A DNA stretch of 64,000 nucleotides from an uncultured Ruminococcus sp. (GTDB lineage Bacteria > Bacillota > Clostridia > Oscillospirales > CAG-272): NCBI GenBank assembly GCA_902782445.1, contig CACZNC010000008.1:32630-96629 (forward strand), in the 5' to 3' direction. Positions 7,794-55,004 of this stretch are shown one piece after another; position 1 is the first letter of the stretch; the number at the start of each line of letters is the position of its first letter. A program made the translations under genes and the position numbers. The notes below the pieces were generated by a model. That model saw only the letters and a program-made list of their open reading frames with translations, did not search any database and was not told where the DNA came from.

Positions 7794-7888
7794 ATACTAA
7801 TTCCACTCAAAACCATTGCAATGGTTTTGAGTGATCCTGAAAGTCAGAATGACTTTCAGGGCATTCTAAATCTATGATTTAGAATGGA
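7794..7888. repeat. Three-hairpin element, copy 1 (right terminus lost)
   Basis: ATACTAATTC plus hairpins at 7804-7833, 7836-7860 and 7862-7886; homologous to 54900-55004. Confidence 0.85.
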
Positions 7889-8204
7889 GAACGGATGGCG
7901 GAAGTGAAAAGGGTTCACGATGCCTGGCGGAACGGGACGCCGAACAGGCCGCCGGTTACCGTGCAGCTTCTCGGAGCATATCCTCCGGATCGGGCAGCCT
8001 GCGAATGATCCGGCAGAAGGTGCGAAATGAAGTTTCCTTTTCATGTGGAACTGCGGCCGATTCGGGGATTTCGGACGTTTTGGAGACGCGGATACGGACG
8101 GGCTCGCTGTCTGGAACCGCTCTGGTCCTCACATGAACCAGCAGACAGACGTCTCGGGCATAAAACAACTGCTCTGACACAGAAAACACGAGGTACAAAA
8201 TATC

Positions 8205-9302
8205 ATGAAAATAGGCTTTATCGGCAACGGCTGGAGAACAGAAGGGTACTGGCGCATCGTCCATGAAGTGCCGGAAGAATTTGAAATCTCCGGCGTCCTC
8301 TTCCGAAACCCGGACAAAGCTGCAGCCTTCGGGAAAACCCACCCCGGGCTGGCATTCACCGAACTCGACGCTTTTCTGGGACAGGACCACGACATGGTGT
8401 TCATCCTTCTCCCCCGGCACATCGTCCTGCCCTATATCGAAGCTGTGCTCAAAGCCGGATTTCCTCTTCTCGTCGAAACGCCACCCGCGAACGGACCGGA
8501 CGAGCTGAACGCGGTCTGGGAGCTCCAGAAGAAATACGGCGCGAAGATCCAGGTGGCGGAGCAATACTTCCTTCAGCCATATCACCGGGCGGTGAAAGCA
8601 CTCGCGGACCGGGGCGTGTTCGGCGAAATCAGCAACCTGCGGATCTCTATGGCGCACGACTATCACGGCATCAGCGTGATGCGGCGTCTGCTTGGAACGG
8701 AGGGACTTCCCTGCTCCATTACGGGGCAGAGGTTCGAATTTCCCGTACTCTGGCACTGCGGAAGGGAAGGACTCGCCGAAGGTTCGGAAAAAATAGTGAG
8801 AGACGGCAGAAAAGTCGCGTCCTTCGTGTTTGAGAACGGAAAGGTCGGGTTCTTCGATTTTGCCGGGGAGCAGTATTTCAACTATTTCCGCAGCCGGCAC
8901 CTGAACGTACAGGGCACGCACGGAGAACTCAACGACTACAATGTCGCATACTGGAACGGCAGAATGCCCGTATCCGCCCGGCTGGAACGTCAGGATACGG
9001 GGAAGGACTCCAATCTGGAGGGATATTTCCACCGGGGGATCACCTGGAACGGTGAATATGTGTATGAAAATCCTTTCGCAAAGTATCCGAAGGCCCGGCT
9101 GACCGACGACGAGATCGCAATGGGATCGCTGCTCCTCGGCATGAAGCGGATGATCGCCGGAGGAGAGGAGATCTATCCCCTTCGGGAGGCGCTGGAGGAT
9201 ACCTACCTCTATCTCATGATGGACGAAGCCATCCGCACCGGGACAGCCGTGAAAACAACGCCGCAAGCGTGGAATGATACTGATCTCAATCCAAAAAGCT
9301 GA
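8205..9302 (+). CDS. Gfo/Idh/MocA-family oxidoreductase
   Basis: MKIGFIGNGWR Rossmann start; LVETPPA (EKP-like); HDYHG. Confidence 0.88.
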   Translation: MKIGFIGNGWRTEGYWRIVHEVPEEFEISGVLFRNPDKAAAFGKTHPGLAFTELDAFLGQDHDMVFILLPRHIVLPYIEAVLKAGFPLLVETPPANGPDELNAVWELQKKYGAKIQVAEQYFLQPYHRAVKALADRGVFGEISNLRISMAHDYHGISVMRRLLGTEGLPCSITGQRFEFPVLWHCGREGLAEGSEKIVRDGRKVASFVFENGKVGFFDFAGEQYFNYFRSRHLNVQGTHGELNDYNVAYWNGRMPVSARLERQDTGKDSNLEGYFHRGITWNGEYVYENPFAKYPKARLTDDEIAMGSLLLGMKRMIAGGEEIYPLREALEDTYLYLMMDEAIRTGTAVKTTPQAWNDTDLNPKS

Positions 9303-9470
9303 GTTCAATCCGCTCTCTGCAAGGGATGTTCGAAACGATCTCGTCAGTCGGAGCCGCTGCAGTCCCGCGCAAACAATCTGCATCATCGGCAAGAGAGCGG
9401 AAAACTTCATCCCGGAACCCCACTGAACGAAGGTATTTCCAGATTTGTTCAATGGGGTTCCTTATGATTC
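9277..9470 (-). mobile_element. IS630-family transposase C-terminal remnant plus right end
   Basis: Minus-strand translation NPIEQIWKYLRSVGFRDEVFRSLAD...EIVSNIPCRERI resembles IS630 DDE C-termini; followed by ...GAGATCAGTAT terminus. Confidence 0.7.
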
Positions 9471-9571
9471 CCTGGAACGGTCGGAAAGGCAACATGTGTT
9501 TCAATCCGCCGGGACCCGGAAAAACGCTTCGCTGATCATACCAAGGCGGACAGGACGCGGACGCTTCCGAC

Positions 9572-11086
9572 TCAGCCGTCCTTCTCCTCGATCTTGTCAA
9601 GATTCTCATAGAACAGTTCGATATCCTTGACCGACGGCCTTTCCAGCTTCTTATACAAGGAGCTGAAATCGGAAGACTTCCGGTTCACCGCGAGCCGCGG
9701 CAGAGAGTAAAAGAGATCGTTCACACCGGTGTCGAATCCGAAATAGTTCCCGCCGACCTCATAGGCGATCGTGTCGAAAATGATGTCGAGCATCCGGACG
9801 GAATCCTCGTCGCGGGCGAGCTTTCCGGCGAGAACAAGATCGTAGAACGCCGGGATCACCTCGTTGCCGCTCTCCCACGCCAGAAGCTCCATCGCCGCGC
9901 CGATCAGGGCCGGATCGGAAATGATGCGGGGAACGGCGAGAAGTCCGCCCCAGTCGAGGTTGATGTAGTCCTTCTGCTCCGCGTCGAATTTCGGGTAGGT
10001 CAGGATCCCGAAGTCCACCTCGCAGTCCCGAAGCGTTTCCACCTTGTCGAGGAACAGGATCTGGAACAGCACTCTGCCGGTCTCCAGACGGAGGATCACC
10101 TCCTCGTCGTTGGAGGGCGGCGCATAGATAATGTTTTCATTCGCAAGACCGGCGAAGAACTCGAAGATGGACTGCGTCTTCTCCGTGTTGAAATCCAGCC
10201 GGACTCTTCCCTCGTCGCTGCGGGAGGTGATGAACTGCCCCGCGCCGGTCATGAAATTGATGTAGCAGCTGCTCCCCGCACCGGTGGCCGCGAGCCCGTA
10301 CTGGTCGTTTATGTCCATGACGCCGTCCCCGTTGTAATCCAGCGTCACGGCGCGGGCCAGATCCCCCATGCTGTCGAAGGTCCATCTGCCTTCGTACACA
10401 AGGTCGTAGGGGTTGTCCAGCTGATTGTTCCGGATCAATTCTTTATTGAACAGGATAACGGCGGGACAGGGGAGCATCATGTCGTTCACGGCAAAATAGG
10501 TGTTCTTCCCCAGCCGCAACGCGTCCATCTGCGTCCGGTTCCACCAGTCCGCCTTCATATCGACATAGGGCAGAAGGTCCAGATTATACAGATATCCTTC
10601 CGAAACAAGGGAGGCGTTTCCCTGAATGCAGTGGTTGAACACAAGGTCATAGGTCGCGTCCCCGGCGAGCACGTTGGCTTTCGCGGTGGAGACGACTGCG
10701 CCGAGATCCGCCTCGAACGTGTTGGTCATCACGATGTTCAGCGCTTCCTCCACCTTGATCCGGCGGGAGTACACCGCGTCGTTCATGTTGTTCCCGTTCT
10801 CTTCGTCCGCGAAAAAGTAGTATTTGTACCCCTGCCAGTAGGGCGCGATGGAATGGAGCTCGTCGCCGCTGAAGTCGAGCACGTCCAGATCCAGACCGTG
10901 ACGCGGGCGGGTCTCCTCCGCTTCTTCCGTTTCCGGGACAGCGCTGTCCTCGACCGGATCCGCCGTCATGGGTTCGTTCTGTTTTTCCTCCTGGGAGGCC
11001 GTTTTTCCCCCTGCTCAGGAGACAAGCGCGCTCCCGGCCATGAGCATAGCCGTGAGGACGGACAGAATGCGGATGTGCTTCTTCAT
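9572..11086 (-). pseudogene. Solute-binding lipoprotein with in-frame TGA at the lipobox Cys codon
   Basis: ATG 11086 with AAGGAG RBS gives MKKHIRILSVLTAMLMAGSALVS, then TGA (11017-11015), then continues in frame into the 465-aa ORF, a paralogue of 3988-5466. Confidence 0.8.
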
Positions 11087-11142
11087 GTTTTTCACTCCTT
11101 TGTTTCAGATATCGGATCGGGAAAGATCAAGCGGGCCGGGCC

Positions 11143-14100
11143 TTATTTCAGCACCGTGACCCCCATCAGCGCAAAGATCACATCGTTGGCGATGACGCGC
11201 ATTTCGATCTCGCTGACCGGGACGCCCTCCCTGAGCCGGAATCGGAGGATGTGCGCCTCAAGATCCGTTTCCACCGGCTTCGAGAGATCCAGTCCCGCAG
11301 AGGAAAGCGCTCCGCGGCCCCCGCCGATGTTCTCGAATCCGTTTGCAGGGGTGTCGTGCCAGCGGCCGAACTTGGTGAACCACATGTCCCCGATCCCGTC
11401 GGGATTGAACAGCGGGTGTTCTTCCTCCGTGCCGTCCTCATACCGGACGGTGATCCGGAGGTTTTCCACGTGGGACTGCATCGGGAGCGTGATCCCCGTG
11501 ATGAGAAGATAAACCGCGCGGCCGCCCTCTCCCACGGGAACGGCGATCCGGTCGGGATGGGACGGGGAGACCAGGGTCGCCGCCGCCATGCAGTTTCCCT
11601 CTCTCTTTGAGCGGAACGGGATCCCCTCGCCCGTCACGGCGATCCCGTCGTCGTTCACCAGACTGCGCCACCGGTCGGGCGTCTGTCCGTAGAGCGGATG
11701 ACCTCGGGTAAAATCGCCGATGACGTGCCAGGTATAATAGCCGAAATTGAACTGGCTGTACTCCTCAGGCGGGCGTTCTGCCGTGGAAATGATCCCGTCG
11801 GCGGCATTCTTCGGAGAGTCGTAGTTGAAGAGGGCGTCCATGTCCACCGGCTTCCATGCATACGGCGCGGCAAACTCCTCCCGGAAGGAGCGGAACACCG
11901 AGGGAGCCTTCTTTTTCCCGATCCGGAGCTTTACGGGGCGGATGTACGCAGCTCCTCCGGCTTTCATGCGCAGGAAGAATACGCCGCTGCCCTCACTCCC
12001 CGTGACCTTCGCCGCGATCCGGTCCTTTTCAAGCCGAACGTCGGACAGAAGCTCCTGCGGATCCTCGAGGGACAGGACCGTTTCTCCCGCCCAGCCGAGC
12101 TCCAGCGCTTCCCCTGGACTAACCTCGCGCCGCGGATCAATGGGAGACAGGTTCAGATTCCGGTACTCGACAACAATCTCACCGAAGGACGAGTCCGGAC
12201 AATCGACCGAGACGCTTACGGAGCAGAATCCGGGTTCGACCGAATACGGTACCTCCCTCCCGCCGAGCGTCACGCGCGTCACTTCGGACACGGGGAGAAG
12301 CAGGCTTGTCCGGAGTGCGGTCCCGGACTTTTTCAGGTCGTATTTCAGCCGGAGTTCCGTGTCGCTTTTCCTGTATTCATAGTCGATCAGTGCGGAACGC
12401 ACCGCGATTTCCGGCATCTCCTCCGGCAGGCAGGGGGCGAGGAGGATTTCACTCCGTTCAAGATGGGGGTGAATACCGAGGATCCCCTCGAACACCTCCC
12501 GTCCGAACATGCCGATGGTGTCGCCGAAAAGCGGATTCATCCGACCCGTTCCGTTTACCGAAAGATGGCAGGGCAGATTCAGCGCCGTATGCGTATAGAG
12601 ATGCGGCCCACCGCGGACTCTCCCCGTATCATAGTCGAAGTTCGGAATGCCCGGGTCCCGGCCGCCGTAGAGCGACATATAGACGAATTTGAAGATCTCG
12701 TAAGCCGGCCCGGCAAGACCGATCTGCTGATACGCCAGCGCGAGGTTCAGCTCCTCCCCGCCGTTCAGCTCATAGATCGAATGGCTGTACAGATCGCCGC
12801 CGTTGGGATGCCAGTTTGAACTGCGGCACATTTTCCCGCCGTTGTCCGTCCGCACCCAGTCGAGGTTGTCCTCCGCCCAGTCGAGCATCTGGCAGGTCCG
12901 GATCGGATCCGCGACGCCGAGTTCGGTCGGATGATAAATGTCCGCAAGTTCCGGTTCATCGTGGATCAGACCGTTTCCTTTCAGATCCCGCGCGTAGGCG
13001 AACACACCCTTCCGCTTCTGCCAGAGGACCCGGTTGAGATCCTGCTTCACCGTTTCGGACTGTTCCGTCCAGTACGCTTTCCGCTCCGGATCGTCCGACA
13101 GCTCCGCGGCCAGCGTCATCAGATTGTACAGATATGCCGAGCCCTGCGTACACTGGCCCATGATCGTCCAGTGGTGGTCGCTGATCCAGGTATTCAGGCA
13201 GCCCTCGAGGAGCAGCTCTTTTCCCGGCCTCAGCCGCCGCAGGTCCCGCTCGATCGCCCCTTCCACAATGGGCAGAAGCTCCGCGGCGAATGTGTTGTCC
13301 CCGGTGTATTCCCAATACCGCCGCGCCTGATGGAGGAAGGTCTGGTGCATATTGTAGGACATGATCCCGTCCGGCCGGGCCCCTTCGATCGTGCCGTTGA
13401 AGCCTCCCCGGTCCGGCCCTTCGGTGATCCTTGTAAAGGTAAAGTGATTCCGGAAATGCTCTGCGGCCTCTCGGAACATCCCGTAGGCCAGCGGTCCGTA
13501 GGCGACGCGCCAGCCCTGATACCCCTCCCGCCACGACAGATTGCCGTGCAGGAACACGTTGTCGCCGAACACGCCGTCCGTGGGGAACGCCCCCGCCGCC
13601 ACCGCTCCGTCAAACGCGGGATCGCCGGTTTTCACCGTCAGCCGTTCTCCGATGATCCGATTGTTCTCCCGCATGGCGGAAAACAAGGCATCGAGCGGCT
13701 TCTCACGGATTGCGTTCCCGATCCCGACCGCAGCATAGCAGACACAGCCCGTCGGAAGTCCGGCGCAGACAATGGCGTCATGTACGTCCGTTCCGGGCGA
13801 GGAAACCGTCTGCCCCGGTCGGAAGAAGCGCAGGGCGTCCGGGGGAGCGGCGGTGAAACTGTGTCCGTCAGCACGCAGAAAGATCGGGACATCCTTCGCA
13901 AACCAGCCGTTGTCGGAGGTAAAGCGCTTCAATCCGTATGGATTCGGTTCATCCTCCCGCTCTTCCGTCACCCGGAGCTCCGCGTGGGACTCGGAAATCG
14001 AAACGACATTGCCCCGGACCATATCGCGGGAAAACTCCAGCCGGTAGGGACTGTGGGTCTGCCAGCCGAGCACGCCGCCGTGGAGCCAGTACAGCTTCGT

Positions 14101-14549
14101 ATCCCCGTCCAACCGCAAATCTCCACCCGGATCAGAAGCCCGCACGCGCCGCGGCCCGAGACGAATGTGACGTATACCGGATCGGGGGAAATGCGGTCGT
14201 CCTGCGCCGTATAGCGCACTTCCCCGTTCTCGTATTCCGCGGTGACATGCTGAAATTCATCCAGAAATACGGGAACCGCACCTTTCACGAACGCGAGCCG
14301 TCCGTATCCGCCCATGCCGCCCACATTGTCGAAGTGAATTTCATACCGCGGTGACAGCTTCGCAAGTACAAACGGACGGAAGGGGATTTTCTCCCGTTTT
14401 TTCAGCTCTTCCGGATCGAAGAGCAGTTCCCGGCGGTTGTCAGGGTACAGGACGCACGGAGTCGATCTCTCCGGATCAGAGGGTTCGGCGGATTCGTACC
14501 GGATCCCGCGGCCCGTAGGTTGGTAGGTATATACAGCATTGTCTTTCAT
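11143..14549 (-). pseudogene. Large glycoside-hydrolase-like protein (DUF4450-like, six-hairpin type), frameshifted near 14120
   Basis: N-terminal ORF (MKDNAVYTYQP...GGMGGYGRL...GLLIRVE) and overlapping 1000-aa ORF (DLRLDGDTKLYWLHGG...FLHGNLSWREGYQGWRVAY...YNMHQTF) read as one protein. Confidence 0.65.
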
Positions 14550-14680
14550 TTTTTGATCCCATGCTTTTGTCAATTCAGGAAGAGGTCTCCGTTCAGGTGC
14601 CGGCATGAAGAGATACCGGTTTCCGTATGTTTGTTGTCGACGACTGGCTTTGCCGCCGTCCCTCCGTGAACTGTGTCCGT

Positions 14681-15886
14681 TTACCGGGCCGCAACTGTCA
14701 AAGCGGTTTCCAGCCGGTCCTCGGACTCGTTGTACCAGAAACCGCGGGCTTTTACCGTGACGGTATAGCTTCCGGATCCCAGCGGGGGGACAGTGTATTC
14801 CATTTTTGCCGGACGCTCAAGGAGATAATACGGCGACCACAGCGCAAACCGCCGCTCGACGATCCCCTTCTCGTTCCGGATGGTGATGACATAGTCGTTC
14901 ACGTCCTCTCCGCCGCCGTCCGCATGATCGAAAACGATGCGAAGGCCCTCTTCTGCTTGTGCCGCTTCGAGGACTGCTCCGGGAAGGAAGCGCGGTTTTT
15001 GAGCTTCCCGGATCCTTTTCTCCCTTGTATAGACAAAGGAATCCGGATCCCACGGCCGCTCTACCAGCCAGCCCTCGTGGAAGAACTGTCCCGTGATCAC
15101 GTCATAGGGCTTGATCAGCACGCTGCCGTCGTCGAACGCCTCCACAATCTGCATCTGAGCGGCCGTTTCGTATCCCGTCGGGAAGGTTTTGTAAATCTTG
15201 TCAAACTCATCCAGTTCAAAGTAACTGAAAGTCCCCGTTCCTACGGATGTGAAGTGCTCCTGATGGATCGACCGCGGGTCGTTGATCGGCGCATGGGAGT
15301 GACCGGAAAAGTCGATGATCTGCGGGTAGTTGACAAGGATCGGCATCAGCGCGGCCTCTCCCCAGCCTATGCTGCCGTATACGGTATCCGTCGGATGCGG
15401 ATGCTGGAAAAAGAATATGGGCTTATCCGGCGTATCGGCATGGGCAGCGGCGAGTTCCCGTGCCGCGAAATCAAGCTGCGGCTGACGGAACCTGCACCCT
15501 TCCGTGGTCGTGACCGAAATGAAGTGAAAGCCTCGGATCACCCGGTGCGTGTCCGCCTCCTGCCCGAAGATCTCGAAAAGCTGTCTGCGCGCGCCTTCTT
15601 CCTTCTGCGGACCGTGGTATTCGTGGGAAGCGAGGCTCAGATTCACGATCGTCTCGGGGCGCAGACCGCTGTCAAGGGATTCTTTCACCAGTTTCATCTC
15701 CTCCGGCAGACCGGCGTTTGCGAAATCCCCCACGATGTAGACGGCGTCGACCGTGGGATACTCCTGGCTGTCCGCATAGGCATAGAGGCGGCGCAGACCT
15801 TCCTCAAAACGTGTCTTTTCAATGCTGTCAGGGGTCTTATAGTGCAGATCGCTGCATACCATAAATCTTAGAACGACTTTTTTCAT
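14681..15886 (-). CDS. Calcineurin-like metallophosphoesterase
   Basis: SDLH, VGDF, ASHE, FQHPH, SGHSH motifs; GAGGA RBS before ATG 15886. Confidence 0.88.
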   Translation of the reverse strand: MKKVVLRFMVCSDLHYKTPDSIEKTRFEEGLRRLYAYADSQEYPTVDAVYIVGDFANAGLPEEMKLVKESLDSGLRPETIVNLSLASHEYHGPQKEEGARRQLFEIFGQEADTHRVIRGFHFISVTTTEGCRFRQPQLDFAARELAAAHADTPDKPIFFFQHPHPTDTVYGSIGWGEAALMPILVNYPQIIDFSGHSHAPINDPRSIHQEHFTSVGTGTFSYFELDEFDKIYKTFPTGYETAAQMQIVEAFDDGSVLIKPYDVITGQFFHEGWLVERPWDPDSFVYTREKRIREAQKPRFLPGAVLEAAQAEEGLRIVFDHADGGGEDVNDYVITIRNEKGIVERRFALWSPYYLLERPAKMEYTVPPLGSGSYTVTVKARGFWYNESEDRLETALTVAAR

Positions 15887-16200
15887 ATTCCTCACTTCTT
15901 TTCCTTGATTTTTGATGCGCCATCCGTCACAGATCGTAACCGTCGATTTGTTCCTGCCCGTAAAGCCGGATGCCGTCCATGGGTTCCCCCCGTTTTGAGG
16001 AGAAAGATCGATACAGGATGATTATATCATGGAATCATCCCGGCAGTCAAGACGCAGGATCCCAATTCATGACAGTTTTCCCGGGCAGAATACCCAGGCA
16101 GAGGCAGTTCAAAAGCTCAGGCAGCATGACTTCCGGCCGGGCAGAAAAACTCCGCCGCAGTCCTGCATCCGTTTTTTTCCGTTAGGAAGCGGACAACGGC

Positions 16201-16229
16201 TTGCTTTTTTCTATTGGATCATGTATAAT
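16201..16229 (+). promoter_or_regulatory. Sigma-A promoter for the MFS operon
   Basis: TTGCTT-17-TATAAT. Confidence 0.55.
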
Positions 16230-16289
16230 ATCTGACGGAAGACATGCAGTTCAGGGCTTTTTCCGCCTGAACGGAGAAGGAGGGAAAGG

Positions 16290-19839: not shown

Positions 19840-19861
19840 TGTTGGCCCTCCATTAACACGG

Positions 19862-38624: not shown

Positions 38625-38635
38625 GCTTCCCTTTT

Positions 38636-42925: not shown

Positions 42926-43163
42926 GTGTCTGCTCCTTTCCGAATCGCTCGGTTTCGGATATGCCTCGGGGTACGGCTCGCTCTGCGGGGTCGGCGTCTC
43001 GATGGGTCCGGCATACCGGGGGCTCTCCGCCTTTCTCGGGATGGTCCGGTCCCATTATACCACAGCCGCGGGCGGATGAAAAGGGGATCGGGAAAAGCGG
43101 GAGGAAAAAACTGAAAACGGCGCAGAAAAGACCGTCCTCCGAAAAGAACGGCCTTTGCGAGCT

Positions 43164-46041: not shown

Positions 46042-46068
46042 GGATCTCTCCCCTTTCGCTGAAACAGA

Positions 46069-46118
46069 CTAATTGATTAGAGCATTTACAGTCTAACACA
46101 TTAGACAGCACCTGTCAA
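46069..46118 (-). promoter_or_regulatory. Promoter with two BlaI-like operators
   Basis: TTGACA-17-TAGACT; CTAA-N4-TTAG dyads at 46069-46080 and 46093-46104. Confidence 0.7.
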
Positions 46119-46177
46119 GGGGGTTCACGGATTTGTTACAAACGGTCCGGAGCATTGTTTTTCCGCGCATTCCCGGC

Positions 46178-46206
46178 TTGACAGAAAAGACGCGTCATGC
46201 TATAAT
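46178..46206 (+). promoter_or_regulatory. Perfect sigma-A promoter (extended -10)
   Basis: TTGACA-17-TATAAT with TG at the extended position. Confidence 0.8.
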
Positions 46207-46244
46207 ATAGGGCGAAAAACGAACGCCGGAACGGAGGCGGAGAC

Positions 46245-47000
46245 GTGAGCCTGAAAGACGCGCTGCTCGGACTGCTCTTCCCGCCGGTCTGTCTTCTCTG
46301 CGGAGAGCGGGAGGAAAAGGACGGCCTCTGCGCCTCCTGCCGGAAAAAGTTCGCCCGGGAGACCTTTCTCCGCTGCCCTGTCTGCCATGAGACCGCCGAC
46401 CGCTGTCTCTGCGGAACGGATCTCCTCCGCGGGGCGAACACGGAACTTGCCGGACGCCGCTTCCTCGCCCTGACATGGTATGTCCCCGTGAAGAACGCGG
46501 CGGAGGAGCCGGACCGGGTCACCGAGAAGATGATCCTCATGCTCAAGGACCGCGCCTCCTTCGCGGATTTCTTCGCCGGAGAGCTGGCCCGGGAACTGAA
46601 CCGCCTCTTCGAGCAGGCGGGCGAGGATCCCCGGGAGTGGACGGTATCCTTTTGTCCCCGCTCCGCCGAACGGTTCATGAAAACCGGATTCGACCAGAGC
46701 GAGGAGATCGCCCGGCGAGTATCGAAAAAACTCGGATGCCCGGCGGAAAACCTCTTTGTCCGGGTCACGGAATCAGAGGAGCAGAAAAATCTCGGCGGCA
46801 GTGAACGGAAGGCGAACGCCCGGGACAGCATCCTGCTCCGGAAAAGTAGATTCCGCAGGGGATCGAAGGTCCTTCTGATCGACGACATCCTCACCACGGG
46901 CGCGACCGTTTCATCCTGCGCCGGTCTGCTGGTTGAAGCCGGAGCCTCGAAGGTCTTTCCGGCCGTTCTCTCCCGCGCCCTCACGAAAGAAAAGCGCTGA
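46245..47000 (+). CDS. ComF-family protein (zinc ribbon plus PRTase)
   Basis: LFPPVCLLCG, LCASC, GFDQSE, LLIDDILTTGAT. Confidence 0.9.
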   Translation: MSLKDALLGLLFPPVCLLCGEREEKDGLCASCRKKFARETFLRCPVCHETADRCLCGTDLLRGANTELAGRRFLALTWYVPVKNAAEEPDRVTEKMILMLKDRASFADFFAGELARELNRLFEQAGEDPREWTVSFCPRSAERFMKTGFDQSEEIARRVSKKLGCPAENLFVRVTESEEQKNLGGSERKANARDSILLRKSRFRRGSKVLLIDDILTTGATVSSCAGLLVEAGASKVFPAVLSRALTKEKR

Positions 47001-47033
47001 CTGTTTCCCATCCCAATATCGGAGGAAGATCCC

Positions 47034-47783
47034 ATGAAAAAGATCAAACTCATCCTTACCGCCCTCGCCGCTGTCCTGGCCTTCTCCGCCCTTGCGACCT
47101 GCCTGTCCGCCGCCGACGCCGCGACCGTCGGGACCAAGGCGAAAGCCCTCAAATCCCTCGGCCTGTTTCGCGGGGTGTCGGACACCGAATTCGATCTCGA
47201 CCGCAGTCCCACGCGGGTGGAGGCCCTCGTCATGCTGATCCGCACGCTGGGGAACGAGAAGGAAGCGACGGGAGGAGACTGGAAGCATCCCTTCTCCGAC
47301 GTGCCGTCCTGGGCGGACAAATACGTGGGCTACGCTTATGAGAAGGGGCTGACGAAGGGCGTCTCCGATACCGAATTCGGGACGGGGAACGCGTCCGCGG
47401 CGACTTACGTGACCTTCATGCTCCGGGCACTCGGCTATTCCGATTCCGCCGGGGATTTCAGCTGGCAGGATCCCTTCGGCCTGGCGAAAACCGCGGGCAT
47501 CCTCCCGGATACTGTCGATCTCGAGGACTTTTTGCGGGCGGACGTGGTGGAGATCTCCTTCAGCGCCCTGAAAGCAAAGATCAAGGATTCGAAGGATACC
47601 CTCGGCGACCGGCTGATCTCGATGGGAGCCTTCACGGCAAACGATCTCAAGCTTGCAACGACCCTCGCTCCGGGCGGAGGCAGGCAGATCTTCGTCCGGG
47701 ACCCGAATCCCGCCATCCTCCCCGTCGAGCCGAAGGATCCCCTGCTCCCGATGGACGACGACGGTCCCGCCATCGGGGACTGA
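47034..47783 (+). CDS. S-layer homology domain protein
   Basis: Signal peptide; LGLFRG...PTRVEALVMLIR; HPFSDVPSWADKYVGYAYEKGLTKG. Confidence 0.88.
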   Translation: MKKIKLILTALAAVLAFSALATCLSAADAATVGTKAKALKSLGLFRGVSDTEFDLDRSPTRVEALVMLIRTLGNEKEATGGDWKHPFSDVPSWADKYVGYAYEKGLTKGVSDTEFGTGNASAATYVTFMLRALGYSDSAGDFSWQDPFGLAKTAGILPDTVDLEDFLRADVVEISFSALKAKIKDSKDTLGDRLISMGAFTANDLKLATTLAPGGGRQIFVRDPNPAILPVEPKDPLLPMDDDGPAIGD

Positions 47784-47799
47784 ATCCGGAAAATAATCA

Positions 47800-47839
47800 A
47801 AACTCCCATGCGGAAGAAACTGCACGGGAGTTCTTTTTT
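47800..47839. terminator. Terminator hairpin between convergent genes
   Basis: AACTCCC...GGGAGTT followed by a T-tract. Confidence 0.6.
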
Positions 47840-47866
47840 CGTTCGGGGCTTACCGGGACAGTCCTG

Positions 47867-48943
47867 TCACAGCTTCCACTTCGTATAGAGGAGGGAGGTG
47901 AACGGATCCCCTTCGACCTGCTGATAGTATACCGTCAGAAGGGAGCGGTCGGGAAGCTCCACAGTCGCCGGATAACCGAGGTCGCAGGGCGTCGTCTCAT
48001 GCAGGATGTATTCGTCCTCCCATGTCTCCCCGCCGTCCCGGGACACCACCGCGCGTTCTCCGAAGGGCTCCGTCCGGCGTCCGAAGGAGAGGATCACGGC
48101 CCCGGAAGAATGGAGGCAGAGATGGGGCGGGGATCCCTGGATGTGGGTCGGGACGAGGGGGGACCAGCTCCGCCCGCCGTCGTCGGAATGGGTCTCGAAC
48201 ATGGTGAAGCCGAATTCGACCTGCGCCCCCTCCCCGCGGATCATGCCGAGAAGCCTGCCCGAGGGAAGCTCGACGACGTGGGGTTCGTGGAAATTGTCCG
48301 GGACCGTGCCGTCGGGGATGGAGAGGACGGAGAGCTTCTCCCAGTTCATCCCGCCGTCCCCGCTCCGATAGGCCGCAACTGCGCCGTAGGGCAGCTCGTC
48401 TGTATACATGGCCTTACCGAGATAGAGGAGGTCCCCGTTTTTCAAGAGGATCGGGCCGTGGGGAGCCGAAACGGGAACGCGGACGGTCTTGCCCCAGGTG
48501 AATCCGCCGTCCTCCGACACCCGCAGGAAGGATCCGCCCCGGGCATGTTCCTCCGGAATGGTCGGATAGGCGTCCAGCACCCCGTCGGATCCCGGCCAGA
48601 CCTTCCGGATGTGCTCGCCGTAGCGTTCGAGATAGACCTGAGCGGGGTGGGAAAACCAGGTCACGAGGAGTTTTTTGCCGCCGAGGGAGACGATCCCCGC
48701 GTCCCGGTCGTCGAGATAGGTGTCGTTGACGACGGAGGGGATGCTCCAGGTGCGTCCGCCGTCGAAACTGCGGTAGAGGGCGGTCTTGCCGAAGGGGCAG
48801 ATATGGCTGACGCGGAAACCGGAGTCCACGGCGTAGAGCGTGCCGTCCGCGTCCATCGTCACGCTCGGCCAGCCGTGATAGCGGAAAAAGGTGTCGGGCG
48901 TGCGGCAGATCGCGCCTCGTTTGCATTCCGGGTATTTCACCAT
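47867..48943 (-). CDS. Sialidase/BNR-repeat family protein
   Basis: Five Asp-boxes (SFDGGRTW, SEDGGFTW, SGDGGMNW, SDDGGRSW, SRDGGETW); DLGYP. Confidence 0.85.
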   Translation of the reverse strand: MVKYPECKRGAICRTPDTFFRYHGWPSVTMDADGTLYAVDSGFRVSHICPFGKTALYRSFDGGRTWSIPSVVNDTYLDDRDAGIVSLGGKKLLVTWFSHPAQVYLERYGEHIRKVWPGSDGVLDAYPTIPEEHARGGSFLRVSEDGGFTWGKTVRVPVSAPHGPILLKNGDLLYLGKAMYTDELPYGAVAAYRSGDGGMNWEKLSVLSIPDGTVPDNFHEPHVVELPSGRLLGMIRGEGAQVEFGFTMFETHSDDGGRSWSPLVPTHIQGSPPHLCLHSSGAVILSFGRRTEPFGERAVVSRDGGETWEDEYILHETTPCDLGYPATVELPDRSLLTVYYQQVEGDPFTSLLYTKWKL

Positions 48944-48966
48944 GATTGTCGTCTCCTTTGCTGTTT

Positions 48967-50265
48967 TTATTCCTGTCCGCGGAGGGAGAAAAGCTGATTC
49001 AAAACGGTCCAGAGAGCCGGGAAAGGCCGCATGAGGTTCCAGACCCCGATGCCGGAGAAGCTGAAATCCGCGATCAGACGGGCTTTGGCTTCGACGGAGC
49101 GGGCGTTCTCAAACCAGACCACGTGCTCCACGGCGTCGGCGTAGGTCTCGGGGCGGTCGAAATAGGTGAAGAAAGGGGAGGCCGCTCTCTCGTCGAACCG
49201 GATCCCGGCGCGCTTCTCCTTCGCCAGCCTCACGGCCTCTTCGTTTCCGAGGGACCGGGCTTTCGATTCTCCCTGTATGAAAGGGAGCGCCCAGTCGTAG
49301 CCGTAATTCGGGAATCCGAGGGAGTATTTCCGGGGATCCGCTTCCGTGACGGCGTACTCCGCGACCCGCCGGACTTCGTTGAGCGGCGCGACGGCCATCG
49401 GGGGACCGTAGGTGTAGCCCCATTCGTAGGTCATGAGCAGGGCCCGGTCCGCGGCGTCGGCCAGAAGTCCGTAGTCGTGCCCCCGGTAGAGCAGGCCCTC
49501 CTGAGAGGCGGAAGTCTTCGGCGCGAGAGACACGGAGACCTCCGTCCCCTCCGGCAGCCCTTCCTTCGCCCGGCGGATGAAGTCGGCGTAGGCTTCGGCG
49601 TATTCGGCCGGGATGTACTCGAAATCCATGTCCACCCCGCCCCATCCCTGTTCCAATACCGCTTCCGAGAGTTCCCCGATCAGCCGGGCGGAAAGACCGG
49701 GATCGGAGAGGAGGCGGGACACCAGCTCCGGCGAAAAGGTCCCCCGCTCCGAAAGGGAGGTCAGCACGAGCACCGGGGAAACGCCGTAGGACCGGGCGAG
49801 GGAGATGAGATCTTCTCCTCCCTCCGGCTCGATCAGTCCTCCGTCGTCCCGGATGCCGAAGGAGAAAACGGAGAGTTCGCCGAGATAGGGCAGGACCTGA
49901 CGGAGCAGGGCGCGGTCGACGTCCGGGTAGACGTATCCCCCGGCGAACAGCGGACCGAGGGCGGGGGCGGGAAAGGAGATGTTCAGCTCCTGACCCGGAT
50001 AGATGAAATCCTCCCCGCCGAGGATGGGATTGTTCCGCCAGATCTGATTCAGGCTGACCCCGTACCGGGCGGCGACGGAGGTCAGAGTGTCCCCGCCGAC
50101 CACCGTATGGACCACGTCCGGCTCGAGGATCAAAAGATCCTGCCCCACAGCGAGCCGGGAGGGATCGGAGAGCAGATTATCCGCGATGATCCTCGTGGGA
50201 GTCGTCCCGTACAGGCGCGCGACGGAATACACCGTTTCGCCCCGCTCCACCGTATGAATGCGCAT
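48967..50265 (-). CDS. LysM-LysM-GH18 spore cortex hydrolase (SleL/YaaH-like)
   Basis: Two LysM repeats, DMDFEY, LMTYEWGYTYGPPMAVAP, HVVWFEN. Confidence 0.92.
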   Translation of the reverse strand: MRIHTVERGETVYSVARLYGTTPTRIIADNLLSDPSRLAVGQDLLILEPDVVHTVVGGDTLTSVAARYGVSLNQIWRNNPILGGEDFIYPGQELNISFPAPALGPLFAGGYVYPDVDRALLRQVLPYLGELSVFSFGIRDDGGLIEPEGGEDLISLARSYGVSPVLVLTSLSERGTFSPELVSRLLSDPGLSARLIGELSEAVLEQGWGGVDMDFEYIPAEYAEAYADFIRRAKEGLPEGTEVSVSLAPKTSASQEGLLYRGHDYGLLADAADRALLMTYEWGYTYGPPMAVAPLNEVRRVAEYAVTEADPRKYSLGFPNYGYDWALPFIQGESKARSLGNEEAVRLAKEKRAGIRFDERAASPFFTYFDRPETYADAVEHVVWFENARSVEAKARLIADFSFSGIGVWNLMRPFPALWTVLNQLFSLRGQE

Positions 50266-50332
50266 ATCCACCGCCTTCCGACGGGGCTCAGAAAGCCGTA
50301 CCGCGCCGCCCCGTCCTGTGTTCAAACGGTCC

Positions 50333-50361
50333 ATTGTATGCGGCGCGGCACCTTCTCATGC
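50333..50361 (-). promoter_or_regulatory. Sigma-E-like sporulation promoter
   Basis: GCATGAG-14-CATACAAT upstream of the YaaH-like gene. Confidence 0.55.
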
Positions 50362-50390
50362 GGGAAAAGGGGGAAATCTCCCGCTCAGCT

Positions 50391-51677
50391 TTATTTCAGG
50401 TAGATCTCGAGGACGGGGATATCCGCGCCGAGGGGCTTGTAGATCGGGAGCGGAATGTCGACCGTCTTGTTTTCCGGATTGTACGAGAAGCGCATTTCGG
50501 AGGCGTCGGACAGGATCTGGATGTATTCGACGTGTTCCGCGACCTCGCCCGTCAGGCGGATCTTGCCGAAGGGCCAGGAGTACATGTGCAGATACAGCCG
50601 CTTCGTGTCGGGATTGTAGGTGTAGCGGCAGTCGCGGGGGCATTCGAATTCCAGCGGAGCCTGGGTGCATCCGTAGATCGAGCGGGAGTGGCGCTTCATC
50701 CACTTGCCGATGCCTCTCAGCCGGTCGTAGGCCCGTTCGTCGAATTCGCCGCGGCCGGTGGGACCGACGTTGAGCAGCAGGTTCCCGCCCATGGAAACGC
50801 TGTCGATGAGCATTTTCAGAAGCTGATCGACGCTCTTCCAGCTCTGTTCGTCCCGGTAGTAGCCCCAGGAGCCCGAGAAGGTGTGACAGCCCTCCCAGAC
50901 CACGGGGACGCCGTTGACTTTGTACCATCCGTCGGGCATGTACTGCTCGGGGGTCTTCACGTCCTGATCGATCTGGAGGCGGTCGTCGATCATGATCTTC
51001 GGGTTGATTTTCCGGATCTTTTCGATCAGTTCCTCGCTGCGCCAGACTTCCTTGCCCTTTCCGGCGAATCTGCCGCCCGGGCCGACGGAGAAGTCGAACC
51101 AGATGATGTCGACGGGGTCATAGCGGGTGAGGAGTTCTTCGGTCTGGTTGTGGAGGTATTCGACGTACCGGCTGAGGACCCGGTCCTTGTCCCCGGCGAT
51201 GTACTCCTCGTTGTCCCGCATCGGATGGCAGTGGTCCACGGTGTAGTCCGGGTGATGCCAGTCGAGGAGGGAGTGGTAGAAGCCGGTGCGCAGTCCGCGG
51301 GAACGGAAGGCCTCCACCATCGGGGTGAGGATATCCTTGCCGTAGGGGGTGTTCGTCGCCTTGTAGTCGGTGTAGGCGGAATCCCAGAGGCAGAAGCCCT
51401 CGTGGTGCTTGGTGGTGATGATGAAGTATTTCATCCCGGCGTCTTTCGCGGCGTCCGCCCAGAGCGCGGGATCGTAGAGATCCGGGTCGAAGTGGCGGAA
51501 ATACTTCTCGTCGTAGATCTCCGTGGGGATCCGCTCGTAGTTTTTCAGCCATTCGTGGCGCGCGCCGAGGGCGTAGAGGCCCCAATGAATGAACATGCCG
51601 AAGCGGTCGTGGGTGAACCAGCTCGTGTCGCCGGGAGTCGGCGCGGGTTTGATGACGGTCAGGTCTTCGAGTCGCAT
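50391..51677 (-). CDS. Alpha-L-fucosidase (GH29)
   Basis: RFGMFIHWG, TTKHHEGF, IIWFD, GGNLLLNVGP. Confidence 0.95.
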   Translation of the reverse strand: MRLEDLTVIKPAPTPGDTSWFTHDRFGMFIHWGLYALGARHEWLKNYERIPTEIYDEKYFRHFDPDLYDPALWADAAKDAGMKYFIITTKHHEGFCLWDSAYTDYKATNTPYGKDILTPMVEAFRSRGLRTGFYHSLLDWHHPDYTVDHCHPMRDNEEYIAGDKDRVLSRYVEYLHNQTEELLTRYDPVDIIWFDFSVGPGGRFAGKGKEVWRSEELIEKIRKINPKIMIDDRLQIDQDVKTPEQYMPDGWYKVNGVPVVWEGCHTFSGSWGYYRDEQSWKSVDQLLKMLIDSVSMGGNLLLNVGPTGRGEFDERAYDRLRGIGKWMKRHSRSIYGCTQAPLEFECPRDCRYTYNPDTKRLYLHMYSWPFGKIRLTGEVAEHVEYIQILSDASEMRFSYNPENKTVDIPLPIYKPLGADIPVLEIYLK

Positions 51678-51873
51678 AACAGTCCTCCGTTTGATTCCCT
51701 GATTTCGTTCAGACGGGTCCGTTCCCCGTCTTCTCTGTCAGATTACCATAAATCCGCGCGTTTTGCAAGGGGTTTTTGTAAATCCCGCCGGTTTTTCGCT
51801 CCTTTCCCTCTTTTTGTTCCGGAGGCGGAGGGGAAAGAAATATAAATAAACCGTAAATTCCGCCTCTTCCTCC

Positions 51874-51902
51874 TTGCAATCCGGGACGGGATATGATATA
51901 AT
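51874..51902 (+). promoter_or_regulatory. Sigma-A promoter for the SRP RNA/dnaX operon
   Basis: TTGCAA-17-TATAAT with extended TG. Confidence 0.75.
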
Positions 51903-51941
51903 GTCCTTCCGTGAAGCAATGCACAATAGCTCGTGAATCAA

Positions 51942-52211
51942 GGCCATACCAGCCGGGGGAGCAGCGGGTCCCTGTACTCGAAGTCCGCTACAGCGAGGGT
52001 GGATTCCCGTTCCGAGGGCGGAGCTTGTGCGGTCTGTATCATACGGAATGTGTTGACGAATGGGTCTTGCGCGATTCGCGGCTGTGAACCATGTCAGGTG
52101 GGGAACCAAGCAGCATTAAGCAGTGCAGCGGATGCGCCGCGAGGCAGCCTGTTCCGAGCAGGAAGTGTGGTGGCGCGCATGATCCTTCGTTCGAAGTTCG
52201 GGTGTATGGTC
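51942..52211 (+). ncRNA. ffs: Large bacterial SRP RNA (scRNA)
   Basis: Alu-like 5' domain (GGGGGAGCAGCGG..CCCTGTA...TCCGCT), S domain GAACCATGTCAGG...AAGCAGCA, paired ends, canonical position before dnaX. Confidence 0.93.
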
Positions 52212-52250
52212 TTGATTTGCGAGCTATTCTTGTTTTGTTGAGGGGCAGAT

Positions 52251-53825
52251 ATGCATCAGACGCTTTACAGAAAATACCGTCCCCGCACCTTTGACGGCGA
52301 GGGGGGCGTCGTGGGTCAGGAGCAGGTGGCTTCCGTCCTCCAGTACGAGGCGGCTCACGACAGGCTCTCCCACGCCTATCTGTTCTGCGGTCCCCGCGGC
52401 ACGGGAAAGACCTCCTGCGCCAAGATCCTCGCCAAGGCCATCAACTGCGAGCATCCCGTGAACGGCAATCCTTGCGGGACCTGCTTCGCCTGCCAGTCCA
52501 TCGACGCGGGCACGGCTCCCGACGTCACCGAAATGGACGCGGCCTCCAACAACGGCGTGGACACGATCCGTGATCTGAAAGAGGAGATCTCCTTTACCCC
52601 GGCGGCCCTGAAAAAGCGCGTCTACATCGTGGACGAGGTGCACATGCTCTCGGCCTCCGCCTTCAACGCGCTCCTCAAGACGCTGGAAGAGCCCCCCGAG
52701 CACGTGGTCTTCATCCTCGCCACCACCGAACTGCACAAGCTCCCGGCGACCATCGTCTCCCGGTGCCAGCGGTTCGAATTCCGGCGCATCCGGTTCGACG
52801 TCATCGCGGACCGCCTGCTCTGGATCGCGGAGAAGGAGGGGCTGAAGCTCGATCCCGAGGCCGCGCGCACCATCGCCAAGCAGGCGCAGGGATGTATGCG
52901 GGACGCCATCAGCCTGTTCGAACTGACGTCCTCCGGCGGATTCGACGTCACCCCGGAACGGGTCGCGGACGTTCTCGGTCTCGCCGGGATCCAGACCCAG
53001 TACAAAACGGCGGTGGCCGTCGCCCGGAACGACGCCTCCGCGATCTTTTCCATCGTCGCGTCCGTGGATGCCTCGGCGAAGGACATGACCGTCTACTGGA
53101 CCGAATTGCTCGGATTCTGGCGGGACATGCTGGTGATCCGGAGCCTGCCCGAGGAGGAGCGCGTCCGGTATCTCGACTACACCGAGCCGGAGCTCAAACT
53201 GCTCTCCGACGGCGCGCGGCGATTCCGTCCCGAAGCCATCACCCGGCATTTCGCTCTGATGGACGACGCGCTCCGCGAGATGATCCGGCTCCCCCAGTCG
53301 AAACGGATGACCGCCGAGATCACCCTCATCCGTATGGCAGACCCGGCCCTCGATTCCACGGAAGCCGCGCTTCTCGCCCGGATCGCGTCCCTCGAGGACC
53401 GTCTGGCCATGCTCGAATCCGGCGCGCCGAAGATCTTTCCCGAAATCCCCGCTCCCACGGCTCCCGAAATCCCTGCCGCGGCGGAGGAACCGAAACCGGA
53501 GGCGACTCCGAAGACTGCGGAGGACGAGCTTGTTCCGGCGGATCTCTCCGACGCCATCGAACGGTGCCGCTCTTCCCTGCCCGGGTGCGCGGGGCATCTG
53601 ATGGAGTGCGACTGCTTCGTCTCCCCGGACGGCTCCCGGATCGTATTGAAAACGCCCGGCGAATTCGCGAAGGACATGCTGTCCTCCCCGATGAATCTCC
53701 CGAAGCTGGCCTCGGCCTTCACGCTTTCGGGCATCGGATCCCCCGGGGCGCGGCTCGAGATCACGGTCGGCGCGAAGCCAAAGGTCAAGAACGCCCTCGA
53801 CGAGCTGGCGGACGCGGAGTATTGA
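52251..53825 (+). CDS. dnaX: DNA polymerase III subunit gamma/tau
   Basis: LYRKYRP, GPRGTGKT, DEVHML, NALLKTLEEPP, SRCQRF. Confidence 0.97.
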   Translation: MHQTLYRKYRPRTFDGEGGVVGQEQVASVLQYEAAHDRLSHAYLFCGPRGTGKTSCAKILAKAINCEHPVNGNPCGTCFACQSIDAGTAPDVTEMDAASNNGVDTIRDLKEEISFTPAALKKRVYIVDEVHMLSASAFNALLKTLEEPPEHVVFILATTELHKLPATIVSRCQRFEFRRIRFDVIADRLLWIAEKEGLKLDPEAARTIAKQAQGCMRDAISLFELTSSGGFDVTPERVADVLGLAGIQTQYKTAVAVARNDASAIFSIVASVDASAKDMTVYWTELLGFWRDMLVIRSLPEEERVRYLDYTEPELKLLSDGARRFRPEAITRHFALMDDALREMIRLPQSKRMTAEITLIRMADPALDSTEAALLARIASLEDRLAMLESGAPKIFPEIPAPTAPEIPAAAEEPKPEATPKTAEDELVPADLSDAIERCRSSLPGCAGHLMECDCFVSPDGSRIVLKTPGEFAKDMLSSPMNLPKLASAFTLSGIGSPGARLEITVGAKPKVKNALDELADAEY

Positions 53826-53860
53826 ATCCAAACTGAACTCTACACAGAGAGGTAAATAAA

Positions 53861-54217
53861 ATGAAAGCAAAACTCCCGAAGGGGATCGGCGGCGGTCCTC
53901 AGAACATGCAGGGCATGATCAAGCAGGCCCAGAAGATGCAGGAGGAAATGGAGACGCTTCAGGCCGAGCTCGACGCGAAGGAATACGAGATCCAGGCGGG
54001 CGGCGGCGTCGTGACCGTGAAAATCAACGGCAAGCTCGAGATCCTCTCCATCGATCTCAAGCCCGAAGTCGTGGATCCCGAGGACATCGAGACCCTCTCC
54101 GATCTTCTCACGGCGGGCGTCAACGAGGCGATCAAGACCGTCTCCACTGCCAACAACGAAGCCATGAGCAAGGTCACGGGCAGCCTGAACGTCCCCGGTA
54201 TGCCCGGTCTCTTCTGA
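53861..54217 (+). CDS. YbaB/EbfC nucleoid-associated protein
   Basis: MIKQAQKMQ, AGGGVVTV, VDPEDIETLSDL; between dnaX and recR. Confidence 0.95.
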   Translation: MKAKLPKGIGGGPQNMQGMIKQAQKMQEEMETLQAELDAKEYEIQAGGGVVTVKINGKLEILSIDLKPEVVDPEDIETLSDLLTAGVNEAIKTVSTANNEAMSKVTGSLNVPGMPGLF

Positions 54218-54218
54218 G

Positions 54219-54857
54219 ATGGCAGAAAATCTGGAGCCCCTCGAGCGGCTGACGGACATGTTCCGCAAGCTCGACGGCGTGGGGAAAAAATCCGCCTCCC
54301 GCTACGCCTTCTGCGTTCTGAACTTCTCGGACGAGGAAGCCGCTGAATTCGCGCGGGCCATTCTGGCGGCGAAGACGGAGATCCGCCGGTGCAGGATCTG
54401 CCAGAACATCACGACGGAGGAGATCTGTTCCGTCTGCGCGTCCGAAGCCCGGGATCACCGGACCGTCTGCGTGGTGGAGGATCCGCGGGCCATGCTCGCC
54501 ATCGAGAAGACGCGGCAGTACGGCGGCGTGTACCACGTTCTGCACGGCACGATCTCCCCGATGCGCGGGATCACCCCGGACAAGCTGACCATCCGGGAAC
54601 TGCTGGCGCGGATCTCCCCTCCGAAACAGGAAGAAGACGGGGAGACGGAACAGCAGCCCCGGGTCGAAGAGGTCATTCTCGCCACCAACCCGACGGTGGA
54701 GGGCGAGGCGACCGCGATGTATGTGGCGAAGCTGCTCTCCCCCCTCGGCGTGAAGGTGACGCGCATCGCAAACGGTCTTCCCGTCGGCGGAGACCTGGAA
54801 TACGCGGACGAAATCACCCTCCGCCGCGCGATGGAAGGGAGATATGCTCTTCTCTGA
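54219..54857 (+). CDS. recR: Recombination mediator RecR
   Basis: GVGKKSA.R, C4 zinc finger, VVED, ATNPTVEGEATA, GGDLEYAD. Confidence 0.97.
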   Translation: MAENLEPLERLTDMFRKLDGVGKKSASRYAFCVLNFSDEEAAEFARAILAAKTEIRRCRICQNITTEEICSVCASEARDHRTVCVVEDPRAMLAIEKTRQYGGVYHVLHGTISPMRGITPDKLTIRELLARISPPKQEEDGETEQQPRVEEVILATNPTVEGEATAMYVAKLLSPLGVKVTRIANGLPVGGDLEYADEITLRRAMEGRYALL

Positions 54858-54899
54858 CTCCCCCGCACAATACGAAAATACCGCGGTCCCACGGATCTA

Positions 54900-55004
54900 A
54901 TACTAATTCCACACAAAAACATTGTAAAATGGTTTTGTGTGACCCAGAAAGTCAGATTGACTTTCTGGACAGTCTAAATCAATAATTTAGACTGGAATTT
55001 GTAT
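54900..55004. repeat. Three-hairpin element, copy 2 (complete, with terminal inverted repeats)
   Basis: ATACTAATTC...GAATTTGTAT enclosing hairpins at 54910-54941, 54944-54968 and 54970-54994. Confidence 0.88.

Follow-up and report, generated by a model that had tools for sequence, protein, structure and literature searches.

Two short repeats that lie 47 kb apart in the genome of an uncultured Ruminococcus species (Clostridia, Oscillospirales) raise a simple question: are they copies of a mobile DNA element or of a structured RNA? Both lie in a stretch of 64,000 nt, hereafter the window, which covers positions 32630-96629 of contig CACZNC010000008.1 (C8) in GenBank assembly GCA_902782445.1 (here G000; 4.16 Mb, 144 contigs, GC content 0.60). 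An earlier note on this DNA had described each copy as three tandem hairpins differing by compensatory double changes, and had proposed a non-autonomous element or noncoding RNA in which structure, not sequence, is conserved. We followed up this proposal by computational analysis. Taken as a whole, the data are likely best explained by a MITE (miniature inverted-repeat transposable element) that has an IS5-family, IS1031-like partner, keeps its pairing at the DNA level and has no dedicated RNA function.

Ends, target duplication and movement of the repeat

Inspection of the sequence bore out the sites given for both copies (7794-7888 and 54900-55004). The compensatory differences between copy 1 and copy 2 are exact in each hairpin: CACTC/GAGTG versus CACAC/GTGTG in H1, CCTG/CAGG versus CCAG/CTGG in H2, and CATTC/GAATG versus CAGTC/GACTG in H3 (Table 1). 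Copy 2 indeed has a terminal inverted repeat of 10 nt with one mismatch (ATACTAATTC / GAATTTGTAT) and is AT-rich, its GC content being 0.32 over positions 54905-55008 compared to 0.60 for the genome. Two points needed revision. The mobile unit of copy 2 is 54901-55003, one base shorter on each side, because the outer A and T are part of a 3-nt target duplication. In addition, the family is not confined to two copies. BLASTN with copy 2, a check that the note had suggested, finds 21 copies in G000 at 84-100% identity and others in relatives. The alignment of the 21 copies shows sharp boundaries and three subfamilies. The list of open reading frames (ORFs) of the window contains none of at least 30 residues confined to the element.

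The element proper is ~101-103 nt long and runs from TAC to GTA. Its imperfect terminal inverted repeats (TACTAATTCC.../...GGAATTTGTA) show similarity that reaches ~23 nt inward. In copy 2, 10 of the 11 outer bases pair and 17 of 23 positions are similar over the inward extent; across 38 sequences, the closing stem is 97.7% paired. Read together with its flanks, the element appears as ...T-N/ATAC...GTAT/N-A.... Identical 3-nt direct repeats are present at 39 of 49 sites; in this list one copy is truncated on the right, and four loci form two orthologous pairs. At 43 of the 49, the two sides have the same middle base, compared to 26% for mismatched partners (binomial p ~2e-19). The identical duplications are TTA (14), TCA (9), TGA (8), TAA (7) and CGA (1); in other words, 38 of the 39 read T-N-A. 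Insertion involves a staggered cut of 3 nt, favours T-N-A and duplicates the three nucleotides.

The comparison of filled and empty sites, also suggested earlier, yielded two allele pairs, and these show that the element moved recently. The first pair concerns copy 1. A contig from run X1 follows the window up to 7794 (...TC TGA) and then continues with 44 nt unlike the element. A second X1 contig, which matches from 7889, has 18 preceding nucleotides that overlap the tail of the first contig. Combined, the two contigs represent an allele that lacks the element but has 32 nt of host DNA absent from the window. The copy 1 site is filled in G000 and in run X2, in which a contig spans the filled left junction, and empty in X1. 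The second pair concerns C70:8310-8312 of G000, which is empty and has one copy of the triplet (...CCTTC CGA ATAGAC...). The corresponding site is filled in L099, a metagenome contig with flanks 98% identical to C70 (...CCTTC CGA [TAC...GTA] CGA ATAGAC...). The two pairs therefore define the mobile unit as TAC...GTA (101-103 nt) and the duplication as 3 nt, and because of the CGA case the outer T and A are assigned to the target and not to the element. Depth over the element was 20-50 times that of the flanks in three metagenome runs.

In detail, the same sites do not bear out the analogy, drawn in the earlier note, with the streptococcal RUP repeats and IS630-type transposases. In RUP, the duplication is TA and the linked enzyme is of the IS630 type, whereas here the duplication is 3 nt long, prefers T-N-A and has a free middle base. 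Since the empty sites have TGA and CGA, respectively, in a single copy and without TA, and the middle base of the repeat is variable, we reject an IS630/RUP-like target.

Among 24 other species of the genus, four have the element by BLASTN. With a covariance model built on 47 distinct copies, as the earlier note had advised, it is detected in 8 of the genus's 53 species genomes, with clearly diverged members in G007 and G444. BLASTN gave no hit in 16 genomes that stand for 16 other families in the order, and the element was found in none of 400 further genomes of the family, for which two candidates were scored per genome. The spread is thus narrow and patchy among relatives. Matching public contigs are rumen metagenome-assembled genomes (MAGs) named ‘uncultured Ruminococcus sp.’ and ‘Oscillospiraceae bacterium’. 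A metagenome scan for the end motif returned 45 loci, of which 28 belong to this family, 4 to a second family (see below) and 13 are unrelated, roughly as many as chance would give. At seven loci or more, members of the most numerous subfamily have identical sequences. The element was unmatched in plasmid and phage collections; a single match to a viral contig (the same contig as L133) turned out to be unrelated, a chance similarity.

Nested and abutting insertions were seen in L126 (246-426 and 1051-1215). Here, H3 of one copy has been entered by another copy at TC-TAA-AT, a site matching the target consensus, and two copies stand head-to-head with one TTA in common.

Helix pairing and its possible origin

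Between the terminal repeats there are three perfect hairpins of 11-13 bp, and the repeats themselves can pair as a fourth helix. According to the folding model, a single strand would form a four-way junction, with pairing kept across diverged subfamilies. The predicted folding energies of the plus strand are -48.8 kcal/mol for copy 1 (z -8.0) and -76.0 kcal/mol for copy 2 (z -13.4); the reverse strands have -45.7 kcal/mol (z -8.4) and -74.2 kcal/mol (z -13.6), respectively. All z-scores refer to 200 shuffles, and for either copy none of the 200 folded as well as the plus strand.

Conservation of the helices was evaluated over 44 pairs in a wide set of 38 sequences (26 of the main family and 12 diverged) and in a close set of 47 copies. 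In the wide set, 23 of the 44 pairs changed on both sides (shuffled mean 11.4; reached by 0 of 500 shuffles), and in the close set 7 of 44 did. The fraction of paired cells is 96.3% versus 86.6% shuffled in the wide set and 96.0% versus 93.3% in the close set. The covariation score is 0.259 in the wide set, compared to 0.084 shuffled and at most 0.049 with partners slid; in the close set it is 0.085, compared to 0.038 shuffled. None of 500 shuffles reached the score in either set. All four helices covary, the closing stem included, and one H1 pair displays all four Watson-Crick types among the 47 close copies. It is known that kinship among sequences can outdo shuffles without any structure. 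However, such an artefact is made less plausible here by the slid control and by how large the effect is. The claim that structure and not sequence is conserved has therefore held up: divergent members keep every helix via compensatory changes.

What keeps the arms complementary? G-U wobbles are distributed evenly between the strands, with 25 on the top strand versus 22 on the bottom one in the wide set (other mismatches, 32) and 15 versus 19 in the close set. Moreover, loops occur as reverse complements. The H1 loop is TGCAAA in most copies and TTTGCA in L079. The H2 loop is TGAAT in L152, L153 and L154, and ATTCA in L155 and L166. The H3 loops form the pairs TAT/ATA, AAT/ATT, GCA/TGC and TTC/GAA. 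By a rough estimate, the four 3-nt pairs compare with ~1.4 expected by chance among 14 loop types, and with loops of 5 and 6 nt the contribution of chance is negligible. Inversion of a loop requires one event at the DNA level. Together with the unbiased orientation of insertions (see below), the symmetric wobble and the reverse-complement loops point to upkeep of the palindromes at the DNA level rather than to an RNA gene.

Template switching is proposed as a source of such patterns in the extracts available from PMC8794818, and quasipalindrome template-switch mutation is described in those from PMC7202029. Pairing may accordingly be pictured as kept mainly at the DNA level: template switching during replication within the palindrome would copy one arm onto the other. 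This would yield both the ‘compensatory’ double changes, without selection, and the inverted loops. Selection may add to the effect, in that a compact self-folding insert would leave flanking structures such as terminators intact. A dedicated RNA function would not be involved.

Alternatively, pairing might be kept because the folded four-way junction is needed by the enzyme, DDE or other, for transposition, for example to place the ends side by side, in which case selection would act on mobility and pairing would not be a product of mutation bias. We regard this as unlikely, although it does account for several observations. The closing stem covaries (pair 9-98, UA 27 and CG 11; pair 10-97, CG 34 and UA 2), H1 and H3 each consist of an inner part of a terminal repeat and its complement, and the architecture survives deep divergence. 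However, covariation of terminal repeats is expected of any transposon in which one enzyme binds both ends. The second family, which has related ends, lacks such hairpins and yet is multi-copy with the same duplication. In addition, the most prolific subfamily has two mismatches in H1. It might further be argued that the junction is a functional nucleic-acid machine and no passive cargo: the folded single strand, DNA or RNA, would place the ends side by side and serve as substrate or guide for the mobilising enzyme, its central hairpin being an ancient module shared with an otherwise unrelated repeat family of AT-rich Clostridia (see below). This proposal strikes us as improbable; if true, it would imply that transposition is specified by structure, in a system unlike the classical DDE MITEs.

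Genomic setting of the copies and probable gaps in the assembly

The element is intergenic, mostly at gene 3′ ends. Genes flanking 32 unique sites (three duplicates removed) were classed by a codon-usage scorer that had been checked on four known genes. Eleven sites lie between convergent genes, nine in tandem genes opposite to the element and six in tandem genes co-oriented with it. The remaining six were unresolved; among them, copy 1 and C84:45898 appear divergent. Over these sites the orientation is unbiased and promoter-only regions are under-represented. Insertion into hairpin loops is a weak tendency and no rule: flanks were beyond the 5th percentile of complementarity of mismatched flank pairs at only 5 of 35 sites.

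Copy 2, located where recR and a SpoIID-domain gene converge, is enclosed by a stem of 19 bp with a T-run after it, and therefore interrupts the loop of the recR terminator (Table 1). The outer stem around it is this terminator and lies outside the element. In eleven relatives the recR terminator is ordinary and the element is absent. No base-level empty site for copy 2 was obtained among the closest species, since identity in recR is only 76-79% and the recR-spoIID arrangement is not found there. Copy 1 is flanked by a TetR-type gene (minus strand) and a GFO/IDH/MocA oxidoreductase gene (plus strand), and a candidate consensus promoter is located ~60 nt upstream of it. The ORF next to the signal recognition particle (SRP) RNA gene is presumably dnaX, judging from a reading of its translation; it is followed by ybaB and then recR.

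Table 1. Positions of the two repeat copies, their target sites and nearby features in the window
Feature	Position	Strand	Details
Candidate sigma-70-like promoter	7706..7734	+	TTGACA-17-TATAAT, 12/12 hexamer consensus match; host sequence
Left target copy TGA of copy 1	7792..7794	+	Empty allele (run X1) matches window through 7794, then host sequence
Copy 1	7795..7888	+	Left terminal repeat, H1 7804-7833, H2 7836-7860, H3 7862-7886; from sequence, alignment and fold
SRP RNA, bacterial large	51944-52209		158 bits; directly upstream of ORF 52251-53825
recR	54219..54857	+	Toprim_4, RecR_C, RecR_HhH, RecR_ZnF; upstream of copy 2
recR terminator stem, left half	54881..54899	+	Pairs with 55004-55022 in minimum-energy fold
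Left target copy TAA of copy 2	54898..54900	+	Paired with right TAG, one mismatch
Copy 2	54901..55003	+	Complete copy of 103 nt, from TAC to GTA; 112 bits with the covariance model
Copy 2 hairpins	H1 54910-54941, H2 54944-54968, H3 54970-54994	+	Closing stem formed by paired terminal inverted repeats
Right target copy TAG of copy 2	55004..55006	+	Imperfect repeat of TAA
recR terminator stem, right half and T-run	55004..55030	+	Minimum-energy fold
SpoIID-domain gene	55043..57217	-	PF08486, E 1e-20; convergent on copy 2

Could the repeat be a structured noncoding or cis-acting RNA, such as an mRNA stabiliser, a terminator module or a small RNA, with transposition only as its means of spread? The strong covariation in all helices and the very stable folds would fit, as would the location of copy 1 downstream of a perfect consensus promoter and of copy 2 inside the recR 3′ terminator. 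H3 with the T-rich right end is also terminator-like by score, and the comparable Bacillus bcr1 repeats are reported, in the extracts of PMC3184786, to be transcribed and to show compensatory changes. Nevertheless, we consider an RNA role quite improbable. The wobbles are symmetric and both strands fold equally well. In tandem genes the element has the same orientation at 6 sites versus the opposite one at 9. The reverse-complement loop variants require DNA inversion, not RNA selection, and since empty alleles exist, an individual site can do without the element. The Rfam comparison that the earlier note had recommended gave no family for the repeat, the Clostridiales-1 motif included: across the whole window the gathering threshold was reached by SRP RNA alone. 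In E-value mode, the top score for copy 2 was 22.3 bits where the threshold is 100 bits; the lowest E was 0.12 among the 19 matches listed, all of which scored far below the gathering threshold. Thus, from the original alternative of ‘non-autonomous element or noncoding RNA’, the element is retained in view of its multiple copies, terminal repeats, 3-nt duplication, filled and empty alleles and patchy spread. The noncoding RNA is not supported, in view of the missing Rfam match, the wobble symmetry, the unbiased orientation and the loop inversions.

Assembled contigs of RNA run X19, which carry no information on start, end or strand, matched the window with a single contig, at 8252-8482, off the element. 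Copy 2 contains promoter-like hexamers at 54957-54986 (TTGACT-18-AATAAT, 10/12) that read outward to the right. An outward promoter within the element was rejected, because the hexamers are not kept in the divergent subfamily.

Not all copies in G000 are complete. In seven of the 21 the right end is missing, the cut being at most 6 nt from the foot of H3. A further three are without the left end, and small end duplications are present in two. All twelve aberrant ends are on the high-coordinate side of the contig, which has a chance of ~5e-4 if orientation is arbitrary (a post hoc calculation). Five right-truncated loci are full-length in conspecific contigs (96-99% identical); the corresponding deficits in G000, 146, 84, 150, ~93 and ~45 nt, comprise the element end and flank. 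Copy 1 belongs to the truncated copies. Compared to the X1 allele and a complete element, its right terminal repeat, the second TGA and the 32 nt of host DNA are absent at the junction between 7888 and 7889. In the right-flank contig of X2, 66 nt precede 7889, which by count only equals 32 + 3 + 31. Such a count would be expected if the filled allele is intact and the contig was broken at a 31-mer boundary, and the missing right end of copy 1 is probably an assembly artefact. If the junctions were real, they would represent one-ended deletions immobilising the copies.

In addition to the junction in the window, hidden deletions were noted at C7:71431, C24:37736, C24:108404, C52:19657 and C84:45992 of G000. 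They amount to 42-150 nt relative to conspecific contigs, lie without exception next to a repeat copy on its high-coordinate side and take away 3′ ends of neighbouring genes. The one in the window takes the ribosome-binding site and the start of a small ORF. Caution is therefore warranted with this assembly, as repeat ends coincide with hidden deletions that shorten neighbouring genes.

The mobilising enzyme, related repeats and wider meaning

The target alone, T-N-A with a 3-nt duplication, leads us to infer that the element is partnered by an IS1031-like DDE transposase from the IS5 family. For the IS1031 group, the extracts available from PMC12016507 describe a preference for 5′-TNA-3′ and an exclusive 3-bp duplication, which 38 of the 39 identical duplications here match.

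A number of observations weigh against the proposed MITE with such a partner and with DNA-level upkeep of pairing. An autonomous element with matching terminal repeats was not found in G000, in four relatives or at the 45 end-motif metagenome loci, and the domains DDE_Tnp_1, DDE_Tnp_4 and DDE_Tnp_1_2 (PF01609, PF13359 and PF13586) were unmatched in G000. IS5-type elements do occur in two relatives (G004:C38 and G453:C96), with unrelated ends GATAGTGTCTACACGAG. The end of ISLrh, an IS1031-group member, starts with GAACC according to the same extracts of PMC12016507, whereas the element here starts with TAC. The duplication of copy 2 is imperfect (TAA/TAG). The target preference is asymmetric and reaches past TNA to approximately TC-TNA-NTC(C/G)TC, which the proposal leaves unexplained. 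The gene calls behind the orientation count come from a crude in-house codon-usage scorer. The two H1 mismatches are found in the most numerous and internally identical subfamily, and perfect pairing is therefore dispensable for spread. Finally, template switching and selection for pairing are inseparable with the present data.

As to the search itself, fuzzy end searches of G000 returned the known copies and the second MITE-like family, with no others. G000 is without contigs shorter than 3.6 kb, so insertion sequences may be lost in binning. A candidate 910-bp insertion sequence bounded by inverted ends in L126 was rejected, being really two MITE copies that flank an ordinary gene. The IS5-type insertion sequences with ends GATAGTGTCTACACGAG are located at L087:1100-1990 (G004:C38) and in L088 (G453:C96). 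The G004 copy is broken by stops and lies inside another element, whose ORF we take from its translation to be an IS66-type Orf2.

Movement as single-stranded DNA by an HUH (Y1) enzyme, with the hairpins as recognition sites, would suit the perfect pairing of all three hairpins (the H2 loop being mostly a triloop of G-N-A type), the structure conserved under sequence drift and the conserved left-flank motif TCT-N, but it is very improbable, because HUH insertion is not known to leave a target duplication, whereas here there are terminal inverted repeats, at 39 of 49 sites a direct 3-nt duplication whose middle base varies, and one triplet copy at the empty site, and because Y1_Tnp (PF01797) was found in none of the five element-bearing genomes (78-94% complete). 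The REP/BIME-RAYT and IS200/IS605-derived palindromes likewise have conspicuous, conserved hairpins and an intergenic location. However, they are not known to have terminal inverted repeats or to make a target duplication, and both this difference in duplication and the lack of Y1 argue against their mechanism here.

Two other repeat families were encountered. The second MITE-like family is ~210-260 nt long, has the same T-N-A duplication and no terminal hairpins; its left end ATACTGATTTCACTCTAAACC... is related, and its right end is ...GGAAATAGTAT. In G000 it is found, for example, at C16:48431, C17:10402 and C51:19144 and at the contig ends of C15, C42, C89, C97 and C112; several contigs break inside it. 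L083, L085 and L078 (G453) hold composites in which a member of this second family joins the three-hairpin module head-to-tail and the ends that would abut (AGTAT / ATACT) are missing, and in L088 its free right end adjoins the IS5-type element. The other family is abundant in AT-rich, small-genome Clostridia MAGs (G462-G464), with at least 18-45 matches per genome when no more than 40 candidates were scored in each; its loci include L035:4040-4085, L034, L037 and L143-L146. It has the same H2 hairpin (AGAAAGTCA-GNA-TGACTTTCT) atop a covarying lower stem, and at one locus the lower stem is the H3 stem TTCTAAATC/GATTTAGAA.

How does the element compare to known systems? It resembles the pneumococcal RUP and BOX repeats in being ~100 nt long, structured, intergenic and non-autonomous. 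BOX is modular, and the family described here likewise forms recombinants with another family of modules. Among described repeats, the nearest analogue is bcr1 from the Bacillus cereus group. In the extracts of PMC3184786, bcr1 and the group A repeats are short non-coding intergenic repeats of Firmicutes with strain-variable location and short direct repeats, and bcr1 has a predicted cruciform-like fold of independent stem-loops with compensatory changes. By description, not sequence, bcr1 differs in having ~155 bp, two stem-loops and 5-bp repeats, as opposed to ~103 nt, three stem-loops and a 3-nt T-N-A repeat. Transcription is reported for bcr1 in the same extracts, whereas the element here is known from DNA alone. 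The closest mechanistic class is that of IS1031-group MITEs, with the reservation that no IS1031-type transposase with matching ends was present in any genome searched.

The family is apparently new and undescribed, though its kind is familiar. We did not find a description of it in the literature on MITEs in general, IS5 and template switching, which was searched by topic and not by sequence or host, and a published MITE census could list it. It adds a defined MITE family, with exact ends, target duplication and filled and empty alleles, to the poorly studied uncultured Oscillospiraceae of the rumen. At the same time, it is a DNA repeat with textbook covariation in four helices that yet bears strand-symmetric wobble and reverse-complemented loops, the marks of template switching. 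Covariation screens could therefore mistake such repeats for RNA genes. The main wider lesson is that the dynamics of DNA palindromes can mimic RNA covariation.

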